A DNA stretch of 18,367 nt, taken from a virus. The stretch's first letter is position 1, and every line of letters starts with the position of its first letter. The stretch lies in UHGV virus genome UHGV-1667981. One strand, written 5' to 3'. The notes below the pieces were generated by a model. It saw only the letters and a program-made list of their open reading frames with translations, did no database searches and was not told where the DNA came from. Positions 3,128 to 16,084 of this stretch are shown here, piece by piece. The position numbers and the translations under genes were made by a program.

Positions 3128-3145
3128 GTGCGACCGTGGTCGCAC
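3128..3145. repeat. 18-bp palindrome GTGCGACC-GT-GGTCGCAC (copy 1 of 3); candidate SopB/ParB-type centromere site
   Basis: Perfect 8-bp inverted arms with 2-bp spacer; arms extend to 11 bp here (3125..3148). Same 18-mer recurs at 7507..7524 and, with 7-bp arms, at 9950..9965. Resembles the F-plasmid sopC core TGGGACC-AC-GGTCCCA as recalled. Confidence 0.5.
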
Positions 3146-4419: not shown

Positions 4420-4623
4420 TCAATGATGTGAACGCTCAACAGCGATAGTTTTCTGACAATGCTGGGCAATCTCTCGCGACATGTTGATGAGTCGTGAAAC
4501 CTCACCAATATGTAGGCTGGCTTCTGGAGAAGCCAGGGTGACGCTAACCAGATCCAGAATGGCGTCAATATCTCTTAAATTTGAATCGAGTTGTTCAAGA
4601 GTTGATACGGCTGCTTCAGACAT
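4420..4623 (-). CDS. Small protein (67 aa) downstream of a LexA box; candidate SOS-inducible antirepressor
   Basis: ORF 4420..4623(-). A CTGT-N8-ACAG LexA box lies 37-56 bp upstream of the start and overlaps a candidate -10. Function is inferred from context only; no sequence family recognised. Confidence 0.5.
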   Translation of the reverse strand: MSEAAVSTLEQLDSNLRDIDAILDLVSVTLASPEASLHIGEVSRLINMSREIAQHCQKTIAVERSHH

Positions 4624-4659
4624 TAAATCTCATACCATTTAACTAAAAAAGGTTGTTTG

Positions 4660-4679
4660 TACTGTATAAAATTACAGGG
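4660..4679. promoter_or_regulatory. LexA (SOS) box tACTGTATAAAATTACAGgg
   Basis: Both CTGT and ACAG half-sites intact with an AT-rich 8-bp spacer; 15/20 matches to the TACTGTATATATATACAGTA consensus by eye. Overlaps a candidate promoter (TTGAGT-17-TACAGT on the minus strand) for the 4420..4623 gene. Confidence 0.6.
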
Positions 4680-4705
4680 TAAAACTCAAACTTTACGGTC
4701 AATTT

Positions 4706-4948
4706 TCAATGAATTAACTGCGTAAACTGCTGTGTGGCCCGATACTTATGCTCTCTCCCTATGCCACGATCAACTTTCTCAAGAAGTCCAGTACGGACAG
4801 CAGAATCAAGCATCCTTTTAACAATTCTGCTATTTAACCCAACATCAAAAGCAAGCATCGAAGCGAAAACAAACCCATCACCACCATCAGAAAAGCTCTT
4901 TTCGCTCCGTTTTCGTATCATTTCAAAAAGCAATGCCTTTTTATCCAT
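4706..4948 (-). CDS. Hypothetical small protein (80 aa), possibly DNA-binding
   Basis: ORF 4706..4948(-). GGAGGG SD 4 nt upstream of ATG, immediately preceded by the CGTGACCAGTCACG palindrome. DNA-binding role is a guess. Confidence 0.5.
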   Translation of the reverse strand: MDKKALLFEMIRKRSEKSFSDGGDGFVFASMLAFDVGLNSRIVKRMLDSAVRTGLLEKVDRGIGREHKYRATQQFTQLIH

Positions 4949-4956
4949 TTATCCCT

Positions 4957-4971
4957 CCGTGACCAGTCACG
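4957..4971. promoter_or_regulatory. Palindrome CCGTGAC-CA-GTCACG (copy 1 of 2); candidate regulator binding site
   Basis: 14-bp core CGTGACCAGTCACG; its reverse complement CGTGACTGGTCACG recurs at 14594..14607 inside a longer 20-bp palindrome. Sits directly upstream of the SD of the 4706..4948 gene. Confidence 0.35.
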
Positions 4972-5293
4972 CTTTGAGCGCAAGTTTCAGCCTCGTGGTT
5001 GTAAGGTGGCATGACCCTTCGCCATCAAAAATGCATTCTGAAACAGGCATTTTTTGACCACATCGTGGGCAAGTAGTAGATAGCTGCTTCTGCAGCTCCT
5101 TATAGTTTTTCCTGATCAACAAACCAATGACTTCGTTCTCCGAATATGGAACTCGCCCTGGTCTACGCAATACACAAATTTCCCCCAACATACGTAACTC
5201 GTCAGGTTCTAGAATCCAGTCCCGTCTTGATGTGCCTTCCTTCTTCAACCGTTCCCTGCGTCTCCTTTGCCGTTCTGCCGGTGTCAGCGCCAT
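4967..5293 (-). CDS. Hypothetical protein (108 aa) with Arg-rich N-terminus and CPRCG...C..H putative zinc-binding cluster
   Basis: ORF track 4967..5293(-); QRRRRERLKK then CPRCGQ...SECIFDGEGSCH. No confident family assignment. Confidence 0.5.
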   Translation of the reverse strand: MALTPAERQRRRRERLKKEGTSRRDWILEPDELRMLGEICVLRRPGRVPYSENEVIGLLIRKNYKELQKQLSTTCPRCGQKMPVSECIFDGEGSCHLTTTRLKLALKA

Positions 5294-5308
5294 AAATCCT
5301 CCTGAAAA

Positions 5309-5968
5309 TTACTTAACCCAATTAACTACACCGCCAGCGGCCACAACCGCCCTTTCACAGTCACGCTCATATCTCAAAGGTTGAAATACACCATCAATAA
5401 AATATTTATCTCCACCAAACGTTGCAGGAAGTGAAACAGAAAACTGAACATGACCATCCGGAGTTACCGGAGAGTTGCCAGCCTCATACGCGACCCTTAT
5501 CCAGTGCATAAACATTTCAGTACTTACACATCCACAATCAACATCAATTTTGTCATGCTGCTGTTCCAGCCATTGCTCAAAAGTTAACTTGTAAGTTTGG
5601 CTTACAGGTTTGGCTTCCAGTTCTGCTACGCGCTGTTTTGCAGCATCCAGTTCAATCGACAATTTTTCCAACTGCTCTTTATGCTTCTTGTATTCCTGAT
5701 ATGCGTGCCAGGACTGACCTTTGCGCACACTATCAGTAATATCAGTAATCTGTTCTGGTGTTAGCGTAGTCAGTGGCTGTGCTGGGAAAATCAGCACTTT
5801 CCCGGAATCCCAATCAAAACCAGCGTGAATTGACTGAACCTCAACTGAGGGTGTTGAACCAATGCTGCCAGGCGAATGAATAACGATTGTTACATCCATA
5901 TCGCGACGATGGCTGTGGTTGTTGGACAAAATACGATTCACCAACTCAGAAAATTTGGAAAATTTCAT
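5309..5968 (-). CDS. Hypothetical protein (219 aa) with central coiled-coil segment
   Basis: ORF track 5309..5968(-); KEQLEKLSIELDAAKQRVAELEA heptad-like segment. Overlaps the upstream gene's stop (5965..5968), suggesting translational coupling. Confidence 0.55.
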   Translation of the reverse strand: MKFSKFSELVNRILSNNHSHRRDMDVTIVIHSPGSIGSTPSVEVQSIHAGFDWDSGKVLIFPAQPLTTLTPEQITDITDSVRKGQSWHAYQEYKKHKEQLEKLSIELDAAKQRVAELEAKPVSQTYKLTFEQWLEQQHDKIDVDCGCVSTEMFMHWIRVAYEAGNSPVTPDGHVQFSVSLPATFGGDKYFIDGVFQPLRYERDCERAVVAAGGVVNWVK

Positions 5969-6255
5969 GCTGATTCCCCTTTCTCTGCTCTCTCCTGTCG
6001 GAACATCACTATCATCAGGTCGCCTTTTGTCGCTATCTTGGCTGTTGTGCCTGGCTCAATGCGGCTAAGTTCAAATGCGTCATAGAACGCCTCTAACACT
6101 TTCTGGCGTCTTTCCTGTTTGCGGTGCTTTCCCCACTGCTTTAGAAAAACAGAGGCCGCCCACTTCCCCGCACTGAACATGATGTAAAACCAACCGAGAA
6201 GTGCCAGACCGATATTTAGGGCCGTATCGATCGTTATCGTGGTGTCGATATTCAC
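5965..6255 (-). CDS. Hypothetical small membrane protein (96 aa, one N-terminal TM helix)
   Basis: ORF track 5965..6255(-); hydrophobic LNIGLALLGWFYIMF followed by a charged tail. Start overlaps the upstream gene's stop. Confidence 0.45.
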   Translation of the reverse strand: MNIDTTITIDTALNIGLALLGWFYIMFSAGKWAASVFLKQWGKHRKQERRQKVLEAFYDAFELSRIEPGTTAKIATKGDLMIVMFRQERAEKGESA

Positions 6256-6674
6256 TACGCCACCTCCTGTAAATTTCCCTGATAAAAAGCCAGCACACGC
6301 TGCATAACTTCACTTTTCCGGCAATCGTGACAAATCATGTTCAAGCGCCTGTCGTAACGACGTATTTCTCCGTCAGGTAATGACCAGATAAGGTCTGGAT
6401 CAACCACTACCGATTTCTTCGGCTTTACTCTTGATAGTTTTTTACGGGCGTTTTGCCAGTCCTTGCGTGCTTGTGCAGACAGAAATATCCCGGAGCCAGA
6501 GATATACAAATCACCACTGGCAGCAAGCTCTCTTGATAAACGACTAACAGCACACCGGCTAATACCAGTTTCATCCGCAAGTTGCCTAACCGTTCCTCGT
6601 CCATTCAGGCGCACGAATTCCACAATTTGTTTATTCAGTTCTTCCCTCTGTTCTGGTGTAAAAGCCTTTGCCAT
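6255..6674 (-). CDS. Hypothetical DNA-binding protein (139 aa) with N-terminal HTH and CHDC motif
   Basis: ORF track 6255..6674(-); HTH-like segment TVRQLADETGISRCAVSRLSRELA. Start overlaps the exonuclease gene stop at 6674. Confidence 0.55.
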   Translation of the reverse strand: MAKAFTPEQREELNKQIVEFVRLNGRGTVRQLADETGISRCAVSRLSRELAASGDLYISGSGIFLSAQARKDWQNARKKLSRVKPKKSVVVDPDLIWSLPDGEIRRYDRRLNMICHDCRKSEVMQRVLAFYQGNLQEVA

Positions 6675-7273
6675 TACGATTCTCCTTGCCCTTTTACAAG
6701 ACGGGAGAAAATTGCGGATACATATTTAGCCTGATGAATAGCATCAGCCAGGGCATTGTGTCGTTCGCCATCAAATGGCATATCTTTTTTAGGATTAAAA
6801 CCAATAAACTGACCAAGATTAACGATTGTTCGAACATCCTGATCATTAAAATATTCCCATGGACAGGCTAAGCCAACGCGCTCATAAGCACCGCGTAAAA
6901 TTACATTATCGAACGTTGCTCCATTTCCCCATACTTTCAACTTTTTTAAATTACATGCATGGCAAGTAATAAAGTGTGATAATTCAAAAAGTGCATCATT
7001 AATATCAAGGGCATCATTAGTACAAATAGCGGCTCTGGCTTCCTTGCTCTGTTTCAACCACCATAAAATGGTATCACCATCGGCGATACCACCATTCAAC
7101 ATCGAGCTTCTGAGATTCACTGGCACATAAAAAGTAGGACCTAATTCCTCACTTTCTGGAGAAAAAAACACTGCCCCGATAGAAACAATTGGAGCACATG
7201 TGTTAGTACCCATTGTTTCAAGGTCAATCATTACATCAGACCGTTTCCTGTCGTAAATAATCTGATTAGTCAC
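6674..7273 (-). CDS. DEDDh-type 3'-5' exonuclease (DnaQ-like fold)
   Basis: ORF 6674..7273(-), 199 aa; GTG start with GAGGAG SD 8 nt upstream. Exo I-like motif MIDLETMG (D-x-E) and C-terminal H-x4-D (ERHNALADAIH). Confidence 0.7.
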   Translation of the reverse strand: MTNQIIYDRKRSDVMIDLETMGTNTCAPIVSIGAVFFSPESEELGPTFYVPVNLRSSMLNGGIADGDTILWWLKQSKEARAAICTNDALDINDALFELSHFITCHACNLKKLKVWGNGATFDNVILRGAYERVGLACPWEYFNDQDVRTIVNLGQFIGFNPKKDMPFDGERHNALADAIHQAKYVSAIFSRLVKGQGES

Positions 7274-7296
7274 GAATAATTCTCCTCAACGTTTAT

Positions 7297-7524
7297 CTAT
7301 ACCCAAATTTTCTGTTGATATGTTCTGGATGGTTTTGGCGTTCTTTCTGATTCAGGTAAATGAACATAAACACAATATCCATCACCTAAAAAATCAGAAC
7401 GAACAACCAGAACTTTCTTACCACGCCGCCGATAAGTATCTGAAAGACGCTCTGCTTCATCATGCGTCATCGGCCCCTGCTTAAATGGCGTTATTTTCAT
7501 TTTCTTGTGCGACCACGGTCGCAC
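7297..7524 (-). CDS. Hypothetical small protein; start codon ambiguous (7524, 7500 or 7470)
   Basis: ORF track 7297..7524(-). The longest version overlaps the 3' end of the 7481..7801 ORF and the palindrome at 7507..7524; a shorter start at 7470 (MTHDEAERL, preceded by AGGGG) avoids the overlap. Confidence 0.3.
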   Translation of the reverse strand: MRPWSHKKMKITPFKQGPMTHDEAERLSDTYRRRGKKVLVVRSDFLGDGYCVYVHLPESERTPKPSRTYQQKIWV

Positions 7525-7801
7525 CCTCTCTGATTTCCAAGTAACGCTTAATCCAAAGATTTTCTATATGCTTATTACCTGGCTGATTTGATAAATACCA
7601 ATCGGCAATTACAGACTGCTTATTACTATCTGGTCGTGTCCTGTAACCACAAGTTGGACACCAGATAACATATTCATTTCTTACCCCCGAATACCTTAAT
7701 TCTGGCTTCGACGGTTTCCTGAACATAACTTGTTTACAAAGGCAGAATGGCACTTCCTGCCCTATGGCGTTTGATGATTTCACTGCGCTTCTCCGCCGCA
7801 T
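7481..7801 (-). CDS. Hypothetical Cys-rich protein (106 aa), possible zinc ribbon
   Basis: ORF track 7481..7801(-); FCLC...WCPTCGY cysteine pairs. C-terminal codons GCG ACC GTG GTC GCA CAA (ATVVAQ) are the 18-bp palindrome. Overlaps the upstream gene by 68 nt at its 5' end, so the start is uncertain. Confidence 0.4.
   Translation of the reverse strand: MRRRSAVKSSNAIGQEVPFCLCKQVMFRKPSKPELRYSGVRNEYVIWCPTCGYRTRPDSNKQSVIADWYLSNQPGNKHIENLWIKRYLEIREGATVVAQENENNAI
7507..7524. repeat. 18-bp palindrome GTGCGACC-AC-GGTCGCAC (copy 2 of 3, opposite orientation)
   Basis: Exact reverse complement of the 18-mer at 3128..3145. Lies at the overlap junction of two minus-strand ORFs. Confidence 0.5.
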
Positions 7802-8444
7802 TTAATAATGCAGTTCGATTTAAGCTCAGACATCGCGACTTAATTAAAAGCCAGCGTTCTTTATAATCTTGTCTCCAGCTATCAATAGATATATTCAGTA
7901 GAAAACTCAGATGCCTGTCCTGTTCTCTCTCATCAACTGCCTCAGCACACGTAAGTTCTGATTTAACCTGCTGTGCCGCGTAATAAATCAATTTCCGCAT
8001 GGCTTTTTTCGTGGAGGCCTTCATTTTTTTAAAGCCGCCCCCCGAATGAGCAACCAGAAAATCAAGCCATAACCACTGACAAACAATCACATCATTGTTG
8101 TAATCAGGCTTGCATCCGTAGCAATAATAAAGCCAGGCTGATTCCTCGTTATTCAACTGACCAATAGCCCTGCGCCAGCTGGCGCTCTGAAAATCAATAT
8201 CAGTGAGCAACATTGATGATTGTTTAAATGTTTTCCCCTGATGGAATCTAACCGGCTCAGCAGGAACGGACACTTCGTATGAGTTATCATCCCCCACACT
8301 GATTGACCGGACTGGTTTATAGTTAAACCGTCCTGACCTACCGAGACGCATCTGCTCAAGCTGGACCTCCAGAATGCCACCCTGGCGATAATGAACATCA
8401 GCCAATGCCGTAGAGACGCAGCTGCGTATATACTCAAGCTCCAC
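7734..8444 (-). CDS. Hypothetical protein (236 aa); candidate Q-like late regulator by position downstream of cro
   Basis: ORF 7734..8444(-), GTG start preceded by AAGGAG. Several Cys (YYCYGCKPDY). Function is inferred only from synteny with the N15-type immB order (cB, cro, Q) as recalled; no motif-level support. Confidence 0.5.
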   Translation of the reverse strand: MELEYIRSCVSTALADVHYRQGGILEVQLEQMRLGRSGRFNYKPVRSISVGDDNSYEVSVPAEPVRFHQGKTFKQSSMLLTDIDFQSASWRRAIGQLNNEESAWLYYCYGCKPDYNNDVIVCQWLWLDFLVAHSGGGFKKMKASTKKAMRKLIYYAAQQVKSELTCAEAVDEREQDRHLSFLLNISIDSWRQDYKERWLLIKSRCLSLNRTALLNAAEKRSEIIKRHRAGSAILPL

Positions 8445-8655
8445 GCTTACTACTCTCCTTAATCGACTGCTTTACCCGCCGAGTTGTAAAGTCACTCTTC
8501 AGCTTATAAGCAGTACGAACTTCAATATCGCTTTGCCGCAATGAAGGAATCTCTCCAGCGGTTAACCATTGGTAAACAGCTCCGGGTGTTACACCTACCC
8601 CTGCCGCTGCTTTTTCTACACTGCCAAAATGGCGAATAAGTTCTTCTGGTTTCAT
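8434..8655 (-). CDS. Cro-like HTH regulator (divergent from the repressor)
   Basis: ORF 8434..8682(-); first ATG at 8655 gives MKPEELIRHFGSVEKAAAGVGVTPGAVYQWL, an HTH-like segment. Divergent from the CI-like gene across an operator-containing intergenic region. Confidence 0.7.
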   Translation of the reverse strand: MKPEELIRHFGSVEKAAAGVGVTPGAVYQWLTAGEIPSLRQSDIEVRTAYKLKSDFTTRRVKQSIKESSKRGA

Positions 8656-8682
8656 GTTGTTATTATAAACAATAAACAACAA

Positions 8683-8724
8683 TTAAAGCCAGCTATAACA
8701 AATAAATTTTATAGCCAGCTATAA
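8683..8724. promoter_or_regulatory. Two operator-like sites in the cro/repressor intergenic region: TTAAAGCCAGCTATAA (8683..8698) and palindromic TTATAGC-CA-GCTATAA (8709..8724)
   Basis: AGCCAGCTATAA repeated directly at 8687 and 8713 (26-bp spacing); the second copy has 7-bp inverted arms. Located between divergent HTH regulator genes, the classic position for operators. Confidence 0.55.
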
Positions 8725-8746
8725 GAAGATCATTTATGATTACAGT

Positions 8747-9343
8747 ATGAAAACACGAGGCGAACGACTGAAAGCACGCCGTTTAGAGATGAAGCTGACG
8801 TTGCGAGAAGTTGCTGAGGCTGTCGATATCTCTATAGCAGGCGTCCAAAACTTAGAACGTGGCGACGTAATGCCGTCACTGGAGATAGGTATTGCCCTGG
8901 CTAAGTGCTTACGCAAGCCAGTGCATTGGGTGCTATATGGGACAGAATATGACCCTGATCGCATTCCTGTTATTGGCACAACTGAAAGTGGGCCAGATGA
9001 AGAGTGGAAGCCGGGACAGGTTCCAAATACTGAGCGATTCCTGCCATTCATCAGCCAGCGCAATACTGTGTATGCGTTAACTATCAGCAATCTTACGCAG
9101 GGAAACTATCAGCCAGGCGATTTTCTCCTGGTCGATTCTGCGCTGGAACTGGTCCCCGGCGAGGATGTTCTGGTTCGTGATACTGCAGGAAATATCACTA
9201 TCCAGCGCCTGGCCCGTTTTGATGATGAAAATTACTATCTGGATGGAACAAACTCACAACGCGCCATCTTCAGGAAAAGCGATCTTGAATTTGTTCACCA
9301 AATAGTCGGAACGATCAAATCATTCATGGTTGAGGGTAGATGA
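8747..9343 (+). CDS. CI/CB-like prophage repressor: N-terminal XRE-type HTH plus C-terminal LexA/S24-like domain
   Basis: ORF 8747..9343(+), 198 aa. HTH region LTLREVAEAVDISIAGVQNLERG; C-terminal PGDFLLVD...GEDVLVRD resembles the S24 fold. No obvious Ser in a G-x-S-M context, so autocleavage may be absent. Confidence 0.85.
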   Translation: MKTRGERLKARRLEMKLTLREVAEAVDISIAGVQNLERGDVMPSLEIGIALAKCLRKPVHWVLYGTEYDPDRIPVIGTTESGPDEEWKPGQVPNTERFLPFISQRNTVYALTISNLTQGNYQPGDFLLVDSALELVPGEDVLVRDTAGNITIQRLARFDDENYYLDGTNSQRAIFRKSDLEFVHQIVGTIKSFMVEGR

Positions 9344-9442
9344 CTTAATACGGGGTTTATTGTTTGCTGTAAATCTGGTTTAATGCAGGGCATATGTTCT
9401 GTGGGTTGACTCAGGTTACAGCAGCAGAAAAAAGACGAAAAA

Positions 9443-9471
9443 AACCCGAGTCGGCAAACTCGGGTCCTTTT
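9443..9471 (+). terminator. Intrinsic terminator downstream of the repressor gene (8-bp stem ACCCGAGT/ACTCGGGT, 6-nt loop, T-tract)
   Basis: acccgagt-cggcaa-actcgggt then ccTTTTc; preceded by an A-tract, so it could act bidirectionally. Confidence 0.6.
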
Positions 9472-9587
9472 CAGGAAGCAGCCACAACAAAGCGACGGAT
9501 TCCGTCAATCAAAGATGCGTTTATTGTGGCTGCTCCTGCGGATTTTTTCAACCCGAAAAAACATAATTCGCATGGAATGGCTAAAAA

Positions 9588-12500
9588 ATGACATTAAACG
9601 ATTTCTATGCGGATCGCTTTGGCAGCGATCCGTTCTCGCTAATTGAAGCAGCACGGGATGAACTAACCGAGCTGGCACAGATGGCTGGTATCAACTGGCC
9701 TGCCTGTTCCGACAACATCCAACTCAACCCTCGCGGGGGTGTTGAGCGTTACTCTTCATACAATAAAACATCTCCAGAAGCTCTCGAGAAGAGCCTCAAA
9801 GGACGCGTAGAAATTTACTCCCGGCTGGAACACAGCAAAGGGATTGATTATCCGTTCATTAACTTCGTCCATAAAGGCAGCGATGCTGGCTCATGGAGCG
9901 GTTTCTCCTTCCTGTTTTCTGAATATCGCCGTGAGCAACAGCGGAATAATGCGACCGTGGTCGCACAACCGGAAGAAGAACGGGCAAGAATAGAACGTCA
10001 GGCCGAAGCACGTCGTCGCCGTGAAGAACAAAAACGAATTAATGACCTGAAAAACAACCAAATGGACCATGAACGTTTGCTGGGATGGCTGGCATTTCAC
10101 AGCGCGTGGGAACATGCTCCTGCAGAAGACGGCTCGTGGCCATATGCGATTAAAAAAGGTATTCGTGACGTTTTTAATTCGTGTGATGTGCGTCGCGTGA
10201 CCAGTCACGACAGCGCAAAATGGAGCAGGGGGCCAACCACGTATATGGCTATCCCTCTGGCTCACCTGGACGGTCGTTACGATGGTCGTATTGTGGGTTG
10301 GCAGCGAATCGACAAACAAGGTGGAAAATACCAGACCAGCGCCGTAACCAGCGGCGATTTCGTCGGTGCCTGCTTTGTTATCGGTGAGCTAAAAGGGGCG
10401 CAAAACATCGCTGTTACAGAAGGTTTTGCTACTGGTGCATCCATCTGGCTTGCCACGAAAAAAGATAAACGCTTTGACGCTGTGGTTGTCGCTGTATCCG
10501 CTAACAACATGGTTCATGTTGTGGAACAACTGGTAAACATGTACCCGGCGGCAAAAATCACCTGCGCACTGGATAATGACAGGAAATCAGCTACAGAAGG
10601 AAAAGGGAATACCGGCCTGCGGACTGGCTATGAAATCTTATCGAAATTCAACGATGTCCGCTGCGTCTATCCAACTTTTGAAGACGATCCGCAAATGGAG
10701 TGCAGTGACTTCAACGACCTGCACAAACTACGTGGACTTCGTGAAACAGCACGTCAACTGTTTGCAACTGCAAACCGCCTGAAAACTGGCACTGATTTGC
10801 TATCTCTGACGCTCAACCGCCTGAAGACAATTAAGCGGGATAACCGTCGTACTTTTGCCAAAGAGCTGCTGAGAGCGGTGGATATTGGCATGCTAACCTG
10901 CCCGGTTCCTAACAGTCCGTCAGATTTATTTAACATGTTCTGCATCGTTCTGCGTGAAATGGGACTGGAAAATATCTATCGCGCTACGGTAAAAGACCAC
11001 ATTGCCCGTCGCCTGAATAAAAAGTGCCGTATTGCCCAGGCTCCGCGCTCTTTCAGCGAACGCATAACTGATCCCAATAAACGCCCTCAACATATCACCT
11101 ATAAGCGTTTTGAAACTTCGGTAATGACCGATGATGTCCTGAAGTACGTGCAATCACTACAGGGGATAGTCATCGTCCGTGCTGGTATGGGTTCCGGCAA
11201 ATCTACTGGATTGTTACGACCGTTAATGCATAGCTCAGAACGTGGTATCTCTGTTGCTCACCGTGTCTCCCTTATTGGTGGCCTGTGGGAAATGATGACA
11301 GAAGGAAAAGGTGTAAAAGCCGATATCCTGCACTATCAGGACCCTGGCTATCAGGAAATGGCTCCATACGCCAGTAAACTGACCATCTGCATAAACTCGA
11401 TTGTTAAAAACTGCTGGCAACCGTTGATGCGCCAGCACGACTATTTTGGCTTTGACGAGGCCACGCAAGGGCTACGTGCCGTTCTTTCCGGTCGGGCTAT
11501 GGAAAACCCGGTTGCTGTATTCAATACGCTAATTGACGCGCTGGCCAGAACGGAACAACACCCAATCATGGTGGATGCTGATGCGAACGATCTACTGGTT
11601 GACCTGGCTGAACTGGCTATGAAACGCCGTGAAGAACTAGGTTTACCGGCATGGCTGCAGATCCACGTAATTGAATTACCTGTTGATGTTTGCAACCGCG
11701 AAACAGGTGAGCCAATCCGGGTTTTTTATACAGAAAAAGATCGCATCATGACCGAGGTGGTGAAAGCTGTATCGGATGGCGAAAAAATCATGTTGGCCAC
11801 CGACAGCTCCACCTTTGCAGAAGATGTGACAGCCACCCTGAGAATGCATTTTCCTGGTAAGAAATTTCTGTGTGTAAACCAGAAAAACAAACCAGAGCCA
11901 GAAGTTGAAGCATTTACCAATCAACCGAAAAAGATGGTCAAAAAATACGACGGCCTGATTTATAGCCCGTCTATTTCATCCGGCGTGTCGATTGAGCAAA
12001 AACATTTTGACCGTCATTTCGGCATGTTCTGTGGTGAAGTTGTACCCAGCGACGCAGTGCAAATGCTACGCCGCGACCGTACAGCAAAAGAATTTATTAT
12101 CGGCTTTGATAAAGCTCGTGCAAAACGTGAAACTGACCCGCAAAAAATAGAACGAGCATTCGCCCAGGCATTGCTTGCTACCGCAGGTATGAACGGTGAA
12201 CTTACGGATGTCGTTTTCGATGGCGACCGTATATCAATGGGGGTGGCCAATACCGACTTTACCAGGATGAAAATTAAAGCAGCCGCAATTGAAGCGACTG
12301 CGCGTAACGACTACGCCAGCAACATGATCTGCATCATGCACAGCGACGGTTATAAGGTATCACCGCTGGCCACCGATTATGCTGCGAATGATATCGGTAA
12401 AGATCTGCGTAAAGAAGCGCGGGATATTGTGTGGGAACAGACACTGGATCTGCACCTCAATACAGAAACTCCACAAGAATCAGAGCGTGAAGAACTGCTA

Positions 12501-13583
12501 AAAAAACGCGCGCTGACGCTTGAAGAACAGGCAAAACTTGTCCGCTGGGATATTGAAAACGAACTGAAACTACCGGTTGAAGAAGGCACGCTGAAATTCT
12601 ATTTCGATGGTGCTCGAGACAAAGTTCGCCGCTATGAAACAATGCTTTTAGATGAGGTAACAGCTCGTCGTTACGACCGGGAAGAAGCAGCCATCAATTT
12701 TACCTACGCATACCGTCAGGCGGGACAGTGGCAATATTTTGTAGTGACCGCGATGACTCGCGAGCAGGCTGATGATGTCTTTAAAACTAAATTCCCTGGA
12801 ATAATCGATCACAAGGTAAAAGCTACTCCTACTGTTGAAGTCGGGGCGCGCGGTTTCTATGCGCTTAAATCAGCAACTCTCCGGCAGTACTTTATCGACT
12901 GCGGTATCAACCCTGAAACTATGACCGGCGAGGCGACTCAGGAGCGTCTCAAATTCGCTCGAGATAACCTCATGACAGCCGAACGCCGTGACCTGTTGAA
13001 TAACGTTCTGCACATTGGTGGTTTTATGACGCCAAAAGGGAAGCCTAAAGTGCCGGAAGCGTTGTTTAAAAACATTTGCGACTCTCTTGGCCTTAAAACA
13101 GGTAAACGTCGCGGCAGAGACGGCGATAAGCGTCCAACCTTGCGTTTTGTTGAGCCCGAATCAGCGGCATTTATGCTGGATATTCTTGTTCAGCGTCAGA
13201 AAGATGGCCTAACCCTAAAAACGCGTAAAGCCGAGAAGACAGCCATCGAAATGGATCGCGATTTGGATCTCAATATATATATGGATGATAAAACGCGATC
13301 CACAAACGAGCAGGTTCAAAACGCCCCTCATTCAGTAATTTCTGAGGCTTTGGCCGTATTGCCGGTGGCTGTTCCTGAGTCCTGGGCGATGAGTGCGCTT
13401 TCCGGTGAGGAGCTGGCCACTATGTCATCATGGTCATCAACCAGCATAGCTATGACGTTTGCATCTCTGTACCTCACAGAGTTCATGGATCACTTGTCCA
13501 GCAATGAACTGCGGCGGTTACGAGAATACATTACCGGGAATAGCTCATGCAGCTACGAAGAGCAGGGCGCTTTCTATGGGTAA
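9588..13583 (+). CDS. repA: Multifunctional replication protein, primase-helicase (N15 RepA-type, 1331 aa)
   Basis: ORF 9588..13583(+). TOPRIM-like primase signature (AVTEGFATGASIW ... CALDNDRKS) in the N-terminal third; Walker A RAGMGSGKSTG and Walker B-like FGFDEATQG in the middle. Size and architecture match N15 RepA (about 1300 aa) as recalled. Confidence 0.9.
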   Translation: MTLNDFYADRFGSDPFSLIEAARDELTELAQMAGINWPACSDNIQLNPRGGVERYSSYNKTSPEALEKSLKGRVEIYSRLEHSKGIDYPFINFVHKGSDAGSWSGFSFLFSEYRREQQRNNATVVAQPEEERARIERQAEARRRREEQKRINDLKNNQMDHERLLGWLAFHSAWEHAPAEDGSWPYAIKKGIRDVFNSCDVRRVTSHDSAKWSRGPTTYMAIPLAHLDGRYDGRIVGWQRIDKQGGKYQTSAVTSGDFVGACFVIGELKGAQNIAVTEGFATGASIWLATKKDKRFDAVVVAVSANNMVHVVEQLVNMYPAAKITCALDNDRKSATEGKGNTGLRTGYEILSKFNDVRCVYPTFEDDPQMECSDFNDLHKLRGLRETARQLFATANRLKTGTDLLSLTLNRLKTIKRDNRRTFAKELLRAVDIGMLTCPVPNSPSDLFNMFCIVLREMGLENIYRATVKDHIARRLNKKCRIAQAPRSFSERITDPNKRPQHITYKRFETSVMTDDVLKYVQSLQGIVIVRAGMGSGKSTGLLRPLMHSSERGISVAHRVSLIGGLWEMMTEGKGVKADILHYQDPGYQEMAPYASKLTICINSIVKNCWQPLMRQHDYFGFDEATQGLRAVLSGRAMENPVAVFNTLIDALARTEQHPIMVDADANDLLVDLAELAMKRREELGLPAWLQIHVIELPVDVCNRETGEPIRVFYTEKDRIMTEVVKAVSDGEKIMLATDSSTFAEDVTATLRMHFPGKKFLCVNQKNKPEPEVEAFTNQPKKMVKKYDGLIYSPSISSGVSIEQKHFDRHFGMFCGEVVPSDAVQMLRRDRTAKEFIIGFDKARAKRETDPQKIERAFAQALLATAGMNGELTDVVFDGDRISMGVANTDFTRMKIKAAAIEATARNDYASNMICIMHSDGYKVSPLATDYAANDIGKDLRKEARDIVWEQTLDLHLNTETPQESEREELLKKRALTLEEQAKLVRWDIENELKLPVEEGTLKFYFDGARDKVRRYETMLLDEVTARRYDREEAAINFTYAYRQAGQWQYFVVTAMTREQADDVFKTKFPGIIDHKVKATPTVEVGARGFYALKSATLRQYFIDCGINPETMTGEATQERLKFARDNLMTAERRDLLNNVLHIGGFMTPKGKPKVPEALFKNICDSLGLKTGKRRGRDGDKRPTLRFVEPESAAFMLDILVQRQKDGLTLKTRKAEKTAIEMDRDLDLNIYMDDKTRSTNEQVQNAPHSVISEALAVLPVAVPESWAMSALSGEELATMSSWSSTSIAMTFASLYLTEFMDHLSSNELRRLREYITGNSSCSYEEQGAFYG
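9950..9965. repeat. Palindrome TGCGACC-GT-GGTCGCA (copy 3 of 3), inside repA coding sequence
   Basis: Shares the 16-bp core gcgaccgtggtcgcac (9951..9966) with the 18-mer at 3128..3145; 7-bp inverted arms here, because the flanking base is A rather than G. Encodes ATVVAQ in the repA frame, the same peptide the copy at 7507..7524 encodes in the 7481..7801 ORF. Confidence 0.5.
13252..13302. other. Candidate internal replication origin element within the 3' part of repA: 9-bp inverted repeat flanking an (AT)n tract with three GATC sites
   Basis: tggatcgcg (13252..13260) and cgcgatcca (13294..13302) flank atttggatctcaatatatatatggatgataaaa. GATC at 13254, 13266 and 13297. Confidence 0.35.
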
Positions 13584-13771
13584 TCAGTGGATATTATCTT
13601 TGTGTCTCTTGCTTTATGTGTTCCAGCAATGGTTTTGGTTCATAGATCGAAAGTCTCACAAGGAAAACATGAAGGCCAGGAAGGCGATGTTTCGTGGTGA
13701 ACAATTTGCGCAGACTTATCGTATGTGGAAACGTTTCTATCGTGAATTTTCGGTGAACGGGGAGTAAAAAT

Positions 13772-14098
13772 ATGTCTACTACTGCATTTTTGGACAAACT
13801 TGATTACCGTCAGCTGCAGTTCTGCCGGGATGAATGCGAACGACGCATTAGGGCTATCCAGGAGGAAGAAAAAAAGGTCGCCTGGGCTGTAACAGATCGT
13901 GGCCTTATCTTTGGCTGGTTCCGTACGGAGGATTATCTGAAAGCAGTGGAATTATTGGCGCGTGAAGCTGCTGAGCGTTGGGAACGAGCCGACAAGAAAA
14001 ACCCGGAGACGAAGTATGAACTGAATCTCTACATCGAGGGCAACCATCTACCATTGTCAGAGTATAACGCTTTGTTTGCTGATGGTGAGTGGGGTTAA
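13772..14098 (+). CDS. Hypothetical protein (108 aa)
   Basis: ORF track 13772..14098(+); GGAG SD about 7 nt upstream. No recognisable domain. Confidence 0.55.
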   Translation: MSTTAFLDKLDYRQLQFCRDECERRIRAIQEEEKKVAWAVTDRGLIFGWFRTEDYLKAVELLAREAAERWERADKKNPETKYELNLYIEGNHLPLSEYNALFADGEWG

Positions 14099-14302
14099 AA
14101 ATGGATGTTCAATTATACAAATACGAATCCCCTTTGGTTGACATCCTCCACGCCCTTCATGGCGTGGACTCCTGCCACGCTCTGGCAGCGCCTGAACCGT
14201 TTGTGGTTCGTTCCGCTTTACCGGTCTGAAGTAGCAAATGTATTGTTATGGTGTATAAATACTCTTTCTTTTCAATAGAAAGCCAAAAGAAGGAGTATTT
14301 AT

Positions 14303-14530
14303 ATGGTGAACTGCAACAAAAATGAAGAAACTCGCCTGGTTTGGACGGTAGTAATCGGAGATAAAAAGGGCGGTGAAGAGCCTCATTTTGATTATTCTGT
14401 GGCTTTGCAGGCTCTCATCCTTGAAGCGCAGATATACCAACAAGAGATGCAGAAGAACCCTCAACTGGAACCTCGACCAATTGGCCTATTCTGCGAGCGA
14501 GTATCAGCGGCTGAACTCCCTGATATCTGA
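14303..14530 (+). CDS. Hypothetical small protein (75 aa)
   Basis: ORF track 14303..14530(+); AGGAG SD 7 nt upstream. No recognisable domain. Confidence 0.5.
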   Translation: MVNCNKNEETRLVWTVVIGDKKGGEEPHFDYSVALQALILEAQIYQQEMQKNPQLEPRPIGLFCERVSAAELPDI

Positions 14531-14591
14531 TGCCCTCCAACAGCTGATCAGGTTCTGATCAGTTAGTAAAGCAAACTATAAAAACACCTGT

Positions 14592-14611
14592 CCCCGTGAC
14601 TGGTCACGGGG
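14592..14611. promoter_or_regulatory. 20-bp perfect palindrome CCCCGTGAC-TG-GTCACGGGG (copy 2 of the GTGAC-N2-GTCAC motif)
   Basis: 9-bp inverted arms; core matches the reverse complement of the site at 4958..4971. Lies at the entry to the structured region upstream of the antirepressor operon. Confidence 0.4.
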
Positions 14612-14637
14612 TAAAATGTCTTTTCAAATTATTGACG

Positions 14638-14746
14638 TGTGCGTCGTTTTGACGGTAAAGTTACTTCGCTGCGGTAAATCCCGTAGCCGGGACTCTCAAC
14701 CCCGAAATCCGAACGACGCACAACACGCGCCAGCGTGTTTTTTTGT
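14638..14746 (+). ncRNA. Candidate structured small RNA or leader (c4/CA-RNA-like) ending in an intrinsic terminator
   Basis: Long-range stem gtgcgtcgtt (14640..14649) pairs with aacgacgcac (14712..14721), enclosing about 60 nt. Followed by terminator hairpin aacacgc-gcca-gcgtgtt plus T-run (14722..14746). No credible coding ORF here. Identity as a regulatory RNA is inferred from position and structure only. Confidence 0.35.
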
Positions 14747-14844
14747 GTGTATGAGCCTGCGCATATCCGAATTATGGTGGCTCAGGTGGGGCAGCCGAAA
14801 GGCTGGCCGGTGTCGTTTGGGCCGGTGTTGAGAACCCCGCTTGG

Positions 14845-14890
14845 GCTACCACCCCATAGAGATTCTCAACTCTGGTGGTAGCACTGTTTT
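14845..14890 (+). terminator. Attenuator-like hairpin (9-bp stem GCTACCACC/GGTGGTAGC, 20-nt loop) followed by TTTT, just upstream of the antirepressor operon SD
   Basis: Loop contains TTCTCAAC, which is complementary to GTTGAGAA at 14827..14834 and is also repeated (CTCTCAAC) at 14693..14700. T-run starts 4 nt after the stem. Confidence 0.35.
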
Positions 14891-14910
14891 ACCAAACAAG
14901 AGTGCATACC

Positions 14911-15075
14911 ATGTTCAAATTCAAATTTGCGGCAGTCGTTCGCACAGACAAAAAGTCACACATCCATCATCTTTCCACCATCGCGTCATCTGAACGGGAA
15001 GCTCGTCGCCAGTTCGCCAGCCGGTTTGTCCTGGTATTGTCTGCCCGTATTCCGGTGCGCGAGGTGGCTGCATGA
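14911..15075 (+). CDS. Small protein (54 aa), first gene of the antirepressor operon; possibly Icd-like
   Basis: ORF 14875..15075(+); ATG 14911 preceded by AAGAG with 8-nt spacer. Stop overlaps the next gene's start (ATGA). Icd-like role is a guess from operon position. Confidence 0.45.
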   Translation: MFKFKFAAVVRTDKKSHIHHLSTIASSEREARRQFASRFVLVLSARIPVREVAA

Positions 15076-15305
15076 ATCAGGTAAAAATGAACACTGTTGG
15101 CCTGCTGGAATCGTTGGATGAACGTCTGGCTCAGGTCTATGCGCTTGTGTCATCCGCCCATCGTACAGTCTCCAGCTGTGAGGCGTCGATTTATCTCTCA
15201 GAAGCCGGGAAGCTCCTTCAAATTGCGTGTGAGTTGACACACAAAGCACAGGGGTATTCAGCATCTCTCTCGTCGCAATTGCAGCACAATAAGGAGGCCA
15301 AATGA
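15072..15305 (+). CDS. Hypothetical protein (77 aa), second gene of the antirepressor operon
   Basis: ORF track 15072..15305(+); GAGGTGG SD upstream; ATGA overlaps at both ends indicate translational coupling. Confidence 0.55.
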   Translation: MNQVKMNTVGLLESLDERLAQVYALVSSAHRTVSSCEASIYLSEAGKLLQIACELTHKAQGYSASLSSQLQHNKEAK

Positions 15306-16084
15306 GCGCGTTAGCTGTATTTTCGTTTCAGGAAGAGCATCAGGTTCGTGTAGTGATGATTAACGGCGATCCGTGGTTTGTAGCGGCTGATGTTTGTAAT
15401 GCCATCGGGATTATCAATCATCGTGATGCTGTTGGTAAGTTGGATGAAGACGAAAAGGGGGTCGGTTCAACAGACACCCTTGGAGGTAAACAGGGAGTGA
15501 CAATTATTAACGAATCCGGCCTCTATACCCTAATCCTCCGCTGCCGTGACGCGGTGAAGCAAGGCACAACAGCTTGGCGGTTTCGCAAATGGGTAACGAA
15601 CGAAGTCTTGCCCTCTATTCGCAAAAATGGAGAGTACGTTTACGTCGAGCCAGAGCCAATGCGAGCAGCAGAGCCGTTGAACTGGAGGCAGAAAGAGTAT
15701 CTGCGAGGGCTGATTAACGATATTGCACAAAGTTTTCAATACCGAAATGCCTGGATTAGCGGTGTATGGTTGGCTTTGCGTCGGGCGTGTCGTAATCCAT
15801 CCCCGAACCCCATAACTGTTGATGATTTGCCAGCAATTACGGCAGAACTGCGCCGGATTTTGACGGCTGCTGAGTCGGCATTGGGGAACATGCGCACGTA
15901 TGAACGAGAGTTGTTGCGTGATGTTGTTCGTGGTGGTAGGCGGAGTATGTCGTGTGGTGATTTGCCCATCACCGATATCAACTCTGATCTGGAAAAGGCG
16001 TTACCCGCGCATTTTGAACTGGCAGTTCAAAAACTTGAGCAGTTGTCCGCGCAGCTAAAGCCAGCAGAAATCACCAATAAATAG
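15302..16084 (+). CDS. Prophage antirepressor with Bro-N/AntA-type N-terminal domain
   Basis: ORF 15302..16084(+), 260 aa; AAGGAGG SD. N-terminal motifs (GDPWFVAADVCNAIGI, LGGKQGVTIINESGLYTLILRC, WRFRKWVTNEVLPSIRKNGEY) match the Bro-N/AntA antirepressor domain as recalled. Confidence 0.8.
   Translation: MSALAVFSFQEEHQVRVVMINGDPWFVAADVCNAIGIINHRDAVGKLDEDEKGVGSTDTLGGKQGVTIINESGLYTLILRCRDAVKQGTTAWRFRKWVTNEVLPSIRKNGEYVYVEPEPMRAAEPLNWRQKEYLRGLINDIAQSFQYRNAWISGVWLALRRACRNPSPNPITVDDLPAITAELRRILTAAESALGNMRTYERELLRDVVRGGRRSMSCGDLPITDINSDLEKALPAHFELAVQKLEQLSAQLKPAEITNK

Follow-up and report, generated by a model that had tools for sequence, protein, structure and literature searches.

The window analysed here, the whole 18,367-nucleotide stretch of the virus genome UHGV-1667981, comes from an N15-like linear plasmid-prophage and contains three exact copies of a 14-bp palindrome, CGTGACYRGTCACG, found by pattern search at positions 4958-4971 (copy C), 10196-10209 (copy B) and 14595-14608 (copy A). 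These palindromes, together with the 108-aa protein of the N15 gp46 family that is encoded beside one of them, are the subject of this analysis. The closest relatives of the window are the Escherichia phages YDC107_1 and PhiR46_1, with 97% identity to it, and N15, phiKO2 and the related Klebsiella and Enterobacter telomere phages (genus Ravinvirus) share about 75% nucleotide identity with it. The genes are arranged in the order lysis genes, early rightward genes (on the minus strand here), cro/cB, repA, icd/antA/antB and the protelomerase gene.

The three palindromes and the genes around them

Copy C, which reads CGTGACCAGTCACG on the plus strand and CGTGACTGGTCACG in the direction of transcription, lies at the junction of two minus-strand genes. 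It holds the TGA stop codon (4967-4969, complement) of a 108-aa open reading frame (ORF) at 4967..5293, the homologue of N15 gp46 (phrog_536), and its final G opens the Shine-Dalgarno (SD) sequence GGAGGG (4953-4958, complement) of the gene directly downstream, an 80-aa ORF of the N15 gp47 family (4706..4948, minus strand) with a predicted winged helix. The initial annotation had placed this copy upstream of the SD sequence of the 80-aa gene, which is correct, but had omitted that the same copy carries the stop codon of the 108-aa ORF. Copy B forms codons 203-208 (R-V-T-S-H-D) of repA (9588..13583, plus strand), the gene for a 1331-aa replication protein of the primase/helicase type, and sits 245 bp downstream of an inverted repeat (IR) of the SopB type. 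Copy A, CGTGACTGGTCACG at 14595..14608, is found 23 bp upstream of the -35 hexamer (14632) of a sigma-70-like promoter at 14632..14661 on the plus strand (TTGACG, 18 nt, TAAAGT), which starts the antirepressor operon; the centre of the palindrome is near -66.5 relative to the inferred start of this immA-type operon. Downstream of the promoter, Rfam matches at 14668..14856 (plus strand) mark the two control RNAs of the icd/antA/antB operon (14875-16084): an isrK-like leader (14668-14743), then a C4 antisense RNA (14770-14856). The earlier description of copy A as standing at the entry to the antirepressor control region is borne out by this succession of promoter, leader, C4 and icd/antA/antB homologues. 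The isrK family of Rfam is an Hfq-binding RNA of Salmonella prophages, and its match to the operon leader is directly 5' of the C4 match.

The motif CGTGAC-YR-GTCACG was originally noted as CCGTGACCAGTCACG at 4957-4971 and CCCCGTGACTGGTCACGGGG at 14592-14611. Both sequences are present there and are mutual reverse complements over the 14-bp core. They do not mark two regulatory positions only, as had been thought, since the third exact copy, within the repA coding sequence, had been overlooked; nor is 14592-14611 a perfect 20-bp palindrome, its 9-bp arms enclosing a non-self-complementary TG centre. The CCCC/GGGG extension of copy A to 14592-14611 occurs in this phage only, being confined to this lineage and not kept in N15 or phiKO2, and the conserved core of the element is the 12-bp sequence GTGAC-N2-GTCAC. 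When up to two mismatches to CGTGACYRGTCACG are allowed, the window has four matches, compared with a mean of 0.10 in dinucleotide shuffles, none of which (0/200) had four or more. Read in the direction of transcription, the immA and 46/47 copies have TG at their centre; the sense strand of repA has CA. In one IMG/VR relative (L030), the immA and 46/47 copies (positions 646 and 9973) are both GG-centred, CGTGACGGGTCACG in the direction of transcription, and the repA copy retains TG; this parallel change at two sites is the sole exception to the rule for the centre among the loci compared.

None of the three copies turns up in a scan of the window for intrinsic terminators, the sequences that follow them being TAAAATG, ACAGCGC and GAGGGAT. 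None is overlapped by a consensus-like sigma-70 promoter either, a search that leaves room for weak or activator-dependent promoters.

Conservation of the sites and their association with the gp46 family

The complete genomes of N15 and of Enterobacter phage MStein-2023a, like the 50 kb of phiKO2 that was compared, have exactly three copies each, and these are syntenic with those of the window: one precedes immA, one is within repA and one is at the junction of genes 46 and 47. All are exact save the immA copy of phiKO2, which has one mismatch. In YDC107_1 and PhiR46_1, copy C has a mismatch at the outermost base. A further 53 related loci were gathered with an alignment of gp47, and each copy was scored only where it was in range. 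The 46/47 copy is exact or has one outer-base mismatch in these loci, and its distance from the gp47 ATG is 26-29 nt in 52 of the 53 and 63 nt in L052. Wherever a locus extends into repA, the copy there is exact, and the immA copy is present in the loci that have it in range; in L008, 10 kb upstream is covered, yet only the 46/47 copy is seen. At the repA site, the 14 bp and the adjacent bases are unchanged in 25 distinct contexts in which the neighbouring third-codon positions vary. Since the site is frozen while the flanking synonymous positions change, selection acts here on the DNA and not on the protein alone.

The telomere phage PY54 has a gp47 homologue, but neither the palindrome nor a gp46 homologue. 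At the position in its repA that is syntenic to copy B (L006, about 30985), an insertion of four codons gives rise to a centromere-like repeat of the SpyB type, GGGACCGTGGTCAC, and the right half-site, GTCAC, is kept.

Homologues of gp46 with 29-40% identity are found in epsilon15-like, ZF40, Mu-like, P2-like and Vibrio phages, and every phage genome examined that has such a homologue carries one to three copies of GTGAC-N2-GTCAC. In a census with a hidden Markov model of the family, all 14 motif-bearing phage sequences have a gp46-family gene and the motif-free control PY54 has none; four of the 14 genomes are of the N15 type and not independent of each other, which leaves about 11 independent lineages. 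The position of the site relative to the gene is also recurrent. The palindrome encloses the stop codon in epsilon15 gp49, TL-2011b gp20, Klebsiella phage ST512phi13.3 and two prophage contigs, and directly adjoins it in ZF40 gp22 and one metagenomic contig. In a Mu-like prophage on a Serratia plasmid (L192), the palindrome is within the gp46-family gene, about 20 nt from its 3' end (codons V-T-G-H); of the two copies in this prophage, at 9497 and 15337, the second is inside the transposase gene. Two Vibrionaceae phages have a palindrome 138-226 nt downstream of the gp46-family gene and another 11-19 nt before the start codon of terS. N15-type phages, ZF40 and two prophage contigs have a further copy in or beside replication genes. 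The palindrome sites of the epsilon15-like phages are at 2142, 19517 and 39612 (L060) and at 11500 and 32282 (L061), and the stop-codon site of ST512phi13.3 is at 20336 (L069).

In epsilon15 and TL-2011b, every palindrome copy is followed by an intrinsic terminator within 0-41 nt. A general link between palindrome and terminator has been rejected: a terminator is present at only 5 of 70 distinct sites, a count whose minus-strand check overlooked at least one known case, against a background of 2%, and the association is lineage-specific.

The spacing of the half-sites is strict. Sites with a 2-nt spacer number 34 in 478 kb of gp46-positive DNA; spacers of any other length between 0 and 8 nt, as well as everted or direct arrangements of the half-sites, give 0-1 sites each, and the half-sites alone show no overall enrichment. 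The arms are invariant and the centre varies (AT, GC, AC/GT, TG/CA, GG), the pattern expected of a symmetric dimer on double-stranded DNA. A related arrangement is found in IncN conjugative plasmids: a gene that follows stbABC encodes a full-length gp46-family homologue (E 1e-27 against the family profile), and there are three copies of a variant with a 1-nt spacer, GTGAC-A-GTCAC (L190, 11920, 12022 and 18642; L191, 15022 and 21722). One of these copies adjoins the SD sequence of the homologue itself, one is inside its own ORF (S-V-T-V-T) and one is between ardB and ardR; no consensus promoter was found before the IncN homologue. Judged from sequence comparison, a module of gene plus site is common to many phages and to IncN plasmids.

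The candidate binder and its alternatives

The structural model of the 108-aa protein has a ribbon-helix-helix (RHH) domain, an arginine-rich basic N-terminal helix and a C-terminal Cys cluster. The beta-alpha-alpha fold of the model matches solved RHH proteins, and the fold comparison agrees with membership in the RHH superfamily. Sequence searches with gp46 against Pfam, NCBIfam, PADLOC and the PDB gave nothing significant. A TraR/DksA-type zinc finger was considered for gp46 and rejected: the family profile reaches YbiI and TraR only at E about 0.07, and the Cys spacing differs. The closest resemblance in domain order is to the YbfE-type 'LexA regulated protein' and CopG-family RHH proteins, in which a basic segment likewise precedes the RHH domain; the ZF40 homologue of gp46 has a weak NCBIfam match to PRK11675 (E 0.004), its score being far below the curated cut-off. 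However, these proteins are without the Cys-cluster domain and have no known GTGAC operator.

The three (C)GTGAC-YR-GTCAC(G) copies are probably operators for a dimer of this 108-aa gp46-family RHH protein, whose binding to them is predicted from the sequence comparisons and the protein model. The symmetric 12-bp site is consistent with, although not proof of, the paired strands of a dimeric RHH protein in the major groove. The observations on which this assignment draws are the motif statistics, the conservation of the sites, the selection at the DNA level, the co-occurrence of gene and site and the predicted RHH fold; from them we infer that the protein binds, when it is expressed, and in which direction and by what mechanism it regulates.

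Several points weigh against this assignment. The RHH call comes from a model of the monomer, and the RHH strand has not formed in it, residues 19-29 being extended. In a P2-like Yersinia phage, the sole palindrome is 3.4 kb away from the gp46-family homologue (YenM_42.18). The co-occurrence of gene and site could in principle be due to a third, linked factor. The -66.5, intragenic and gene-end positions are not classical for a repressor, and the regulatory outcome is a guess. The exact AT-centred 14-mer, CGTGACATGTCACG, is also found in phage contigs without a gp46-family ORF in the piece examined. Among 120 IMG/VR loci with this 14-mer, a gp46-family ORF is in the piece in 28 and has the 14-mer at its stop codon in eight. 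In many contigs (L070, L078, L099, L113 and others) the 14-mer is on the stop codon of a 113-aa ORF with the C-terminus ...FTFEQAFAP, which we take to be the lambda-like tail protein M, and in other loci without a gp46-family ORF in the piece it is at the stop codon of an ORF of about 280 aa or at the end of a head protein, the tail-gene and head-protein copies being inherited ones. Since such loci are many, the 14-mer alone is not diagnostic.

That the sites are bound by a dimeric DNA-binding protein had already been proposed in the initial annotation, and the motif is indeed best read as a double-stranded DNA site for a dimer. The reason given at the time, that a 2-nt loop disfavours a hairpin, does not hold, since the element folds with a 4-nt loop; it is the comparative data that disfavour RNA. 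The palindromes might act as RNA hairpins in processing, translational coupling or attenuation; the N-terminus of gp46, which is rich in arginine, would perhaps bind them as N binds boxB. The 4-nt-loop fold has -14.2 kcal/mol (z -2.6) at 14592-14611 and -12.6 for the repA copy, and several palindrome copies adjoin an SD sequence 11-19 nt before a start codon. Yet the copy at 4958 has a z of only -0.34, and the epsilon15 copies are outside the minimum-free-energy fold. There is no covariation in the stem: the arms are invariant across phages whose gp46-family proteins are only about 30% identical, and it is the would-be loop that varies. Because, in addition, the repA copy is oriented opposite to the other two and the predicted fold of the binder is that of a double-stranded-DNA-binding RHH protein, duplex DNA is favoured and a role as RNA hairpins is unlikely.

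The half-sites GTGAC and GTCAC are identical to those of E. coli matS, the target of MatP, the organiser of the Ter macrodomain. The matS consensus is the 13-bp sequence GTGAC-RNY-GTCAC, with a 3-nt spacer (PMC3603311, PMC8669397); the spacer of the palindrome is 2 nt and that of the IncN variant 1 nt. The gp46 family could conceivably be the MatP counterpart of mobile elements, a site-specific DNA organiser that reads matS-like half-sites at a spacing of its own (N2 in phages and N1 in IncN plasmids, with N3 in the host). Such a protein might bridge two or three sites, or exclude or recruit host condensin or divisome factors, and repA, the antirepressor operon and its own locus would then be physically coupled rather than conventionally repressed. 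The two proteins have no detectable homology, as alignment of the gp46 family with E. coli MatP by hhalign gives a probability of 0.2% (the MatP sequence used was checked against 4d8j). MatP has a coiled coil where the gp46 family has its C-terminal Cys cluster, and gp46, unlike MatP, is a product of mobile elements, in which one of the sites falls on the end of the gp46 gene itself. A role of gp46 as such an organiser is distinctly unlikely.

Very unlikely, too, is a role of the sites as matS-like targets of host MatP itself, or of another host factor, by which the plasmid prophage would be positioned or organised. The shared half-sites are set against a spacer that is 2 nt, not 3, in 34 of 34 sites and in all three copies of the window, and only one true matS-type site is present in the 478 kb of gp46-positive DNA. 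Among integrated prophages of several families the motif goes with the phage gene, and PY54 lacks it. Prophages have been reported to avoid matS (PMC3603311). Vibrio phage K303 (L068, position 6724) has one true match to the matS consensus, GTGACACCGTCAC, besides three N2 palindromes.

The products of two neighbouring genes, the 80-aa gp47-family protein and a 139-aa DUF977 protein, had been put forward as binders. gp47 is modelled as a MarR/PefI-like winged helix and may well bind DNA, and copy C adjoins its SD sequence. However, the gp47 family is found only in N15-like phages and in the motif-free PY54, and it is missing from ten other motif-bearing sequences that have gp46. The DUF977 protein has no homologue in N15, phiKO2 or MStein, all of which carry all three sites, nor in PY54. 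Binding of the palindrome by either product is accordingly very doubtful.

N15-type phages scatter SopB sites over their genomes, RHH proteins are centromere binders in other systems, and PY54 has its SpyB-type repeat at the place of copy B, so that the palindromes might be thought to form a second set of partition sites (a centromere) for SopB or another partition protein. The N15 repeats IR1-4 resemble the palindrome in being dispersed and 2-nt-centred in the same phages, with one of them also in repA. They differ from it in sequence and half-site spacing, GTGCGACC-NN-GGTCGCAC (PMC7205306, Table 4), in their ParB-type binder and in a centre that is free to vary. Moreover, epsilon15, ZF40 and Mu-like phages, which integrate and have no partition genes, carry the motif and the gp46-family gene, and this makes a centromere role highly improbable. 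Identity of the palindrome with the SopB centromere was rejected not only on the published IR1-4 but also since the IR family is present separately in the window, at 3128-3145, 7507-7524 and 9949-9966 (the repeat in repA upstream of copy B), with a degenerate member at 88-105; presumably these repeats are what the initial annotation counted as its first palindrome family. The CB/Cro operators of N15-type immB, 16-bp AT-rich sequences of the form TA-N10-TA between cB and cro and upstream of repA (PMC4997575), were rejected as well, since their sequence differs and the operator regions of N15 are without a GTGAC palindrome.

Chance or coding-driven repetition without function, for which only the location of copy B in a conserved coding segment could speak, is next to negligible in view of the shuffles, the spacing control, the freezing of synonymous positions only inside the site and the recurrence of three exact copies per genome across genomes that are about 75% identical.

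Proposed regulation by the gp46 family

The binding of the 108-aa protein to the palindromes would make gene and site a compact module with one operator on the gene's own stop codon. The protein would be made from the early rightward operon, as the gene order suggests, and would occupy three places: the end of its own gene, just before gp47 and a LexA-controlled antC-like gene; the first fifth of repA; and the position 23 bp upstream of the -35 hexamer of the c4/icd/antA/antB operon. Since no site is over a consensus promoter, a roadblock or an upstream modulator is the most likely form of action, and it would tie the expression of the replication gene and of the antirepressors to the early lytic programme. 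The recurrent position of the operator on the regulator's stop codon suggests autoregulation by stalled RNA polymerase. Polymerase would be stalled ahead of the gene's own stop codon, and stalling at the gene end would gate the genes downstream, gp47 first and then the LexA-controlled antC-like gene; gp47 is thus possibly a regulated target of the system. LacI bound to O3 at the 3' end of lacI is said, in the work of Abo et al. of 2000, to be a roadblock that gives non-stop lacI mRNA. LacI and O3 resemble copy C in that an operator is at the end of the regulator's own coding sequence, and the likeness is one of analogy only.

The Arc and Mnt proteins of P22 are RHH repressors of the immI antirepressor operon, and their operators overlap the ant promoter. 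They have no sequence relationship to the gp46 family, and their arrangement differs from the one described here, in which the site is centred near -66.5 and further sites are in repA and at the regulator's stop codon.

The region downstream of copy C and gp47 (4420..4677, minus strand) contains a LexA box and an antC-like ORF of 67 aa (4420..4623), which is related to an anti-repressor PHROG. The LexA box, CTGTATAAAATTACAG at 4662-4677, overlaps the -10 region of a promoter with TTGACC at 4696-4701 on the minus strand, and this promoter precedes the 67-aa ORF. The region is an antC-type second antirepressor locus under SOS control; the role of antC in N15 has been described (PMC4488713). The box is the sole one of the LexA type (CTGT-N8-ACAG) in the window and is distinct from the palindrome, which excludes identity of the two.

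The initial annotation had also proposed that an early-region regulator is linked to antirepressor control. The link is plausible, although not established, because copies of the palindrome precede or flank antirepressor genes or a LexA box in several groups: in the N15 group the immA and antC loci are each preceded by one copy, a gene of the antirepressor type has a copy beside it in epsilon15 and TL-2011b, and in Klebsiella phage ST512phi13.3 the copy at the stop codon is followed by a LexA box.

Two other features of these genomes may be mentioned. Twin GATC-containing palindromes, CTGATCAG-GTT-CTGATCAG, are found at 14544-14562, between the end of the repA operon and copy A, and are also kept in N15 and phiKO2; a Dam/SeqA target and a hairpin are both possibilities. 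In YDC107_1 (CP025712.1, locus 22218-30309), genes recur in inverted order about the protelomerase/telomere region, which looks like assembly read-through of the hairpin telomere.

The records of N15 and phiKO2 have the SopB sites annotated and not the GTGAC palindrome repeat, and full-text searches of the literature with the motif strings as exact terms turned up no paper of relevance, a result that would miss a passing mention in older papers. The system is a predicted RHH regulator-operator pair, set apart by unusual domains, a conserved operator at the end of the regulator's own gene and matS-like half-sites at a shifted spacing. Why the operator is so often on the regulator's stop codon, and why the half-sites of host matS are used at a shifted spacing, are questions that it raises.

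N15 is the model linear plasmid-prophage, and its described circuits, CB/Cro/Q, CA RNA with AntA/AntB, LexA with AntC and SopAB with its IR sites, do not explain the palindrome. The gp46 family spans sipho-, podo-, myo-, Mu-like and P2-like temperate phages and the IncN conjugative plasmids, and it is a family without a Pfam or NCBIfam model, labelled only with the generic name 'transcriptional regulator'. If the 108-aa protein does bind the palindromes, this family would gain a precise 12-bp operator. In N15-type phages, a further conserved regulator would then touch repA and both antirepressor loci, and there would be a testable tie among early lytic transcription, replication and anti-immunity.

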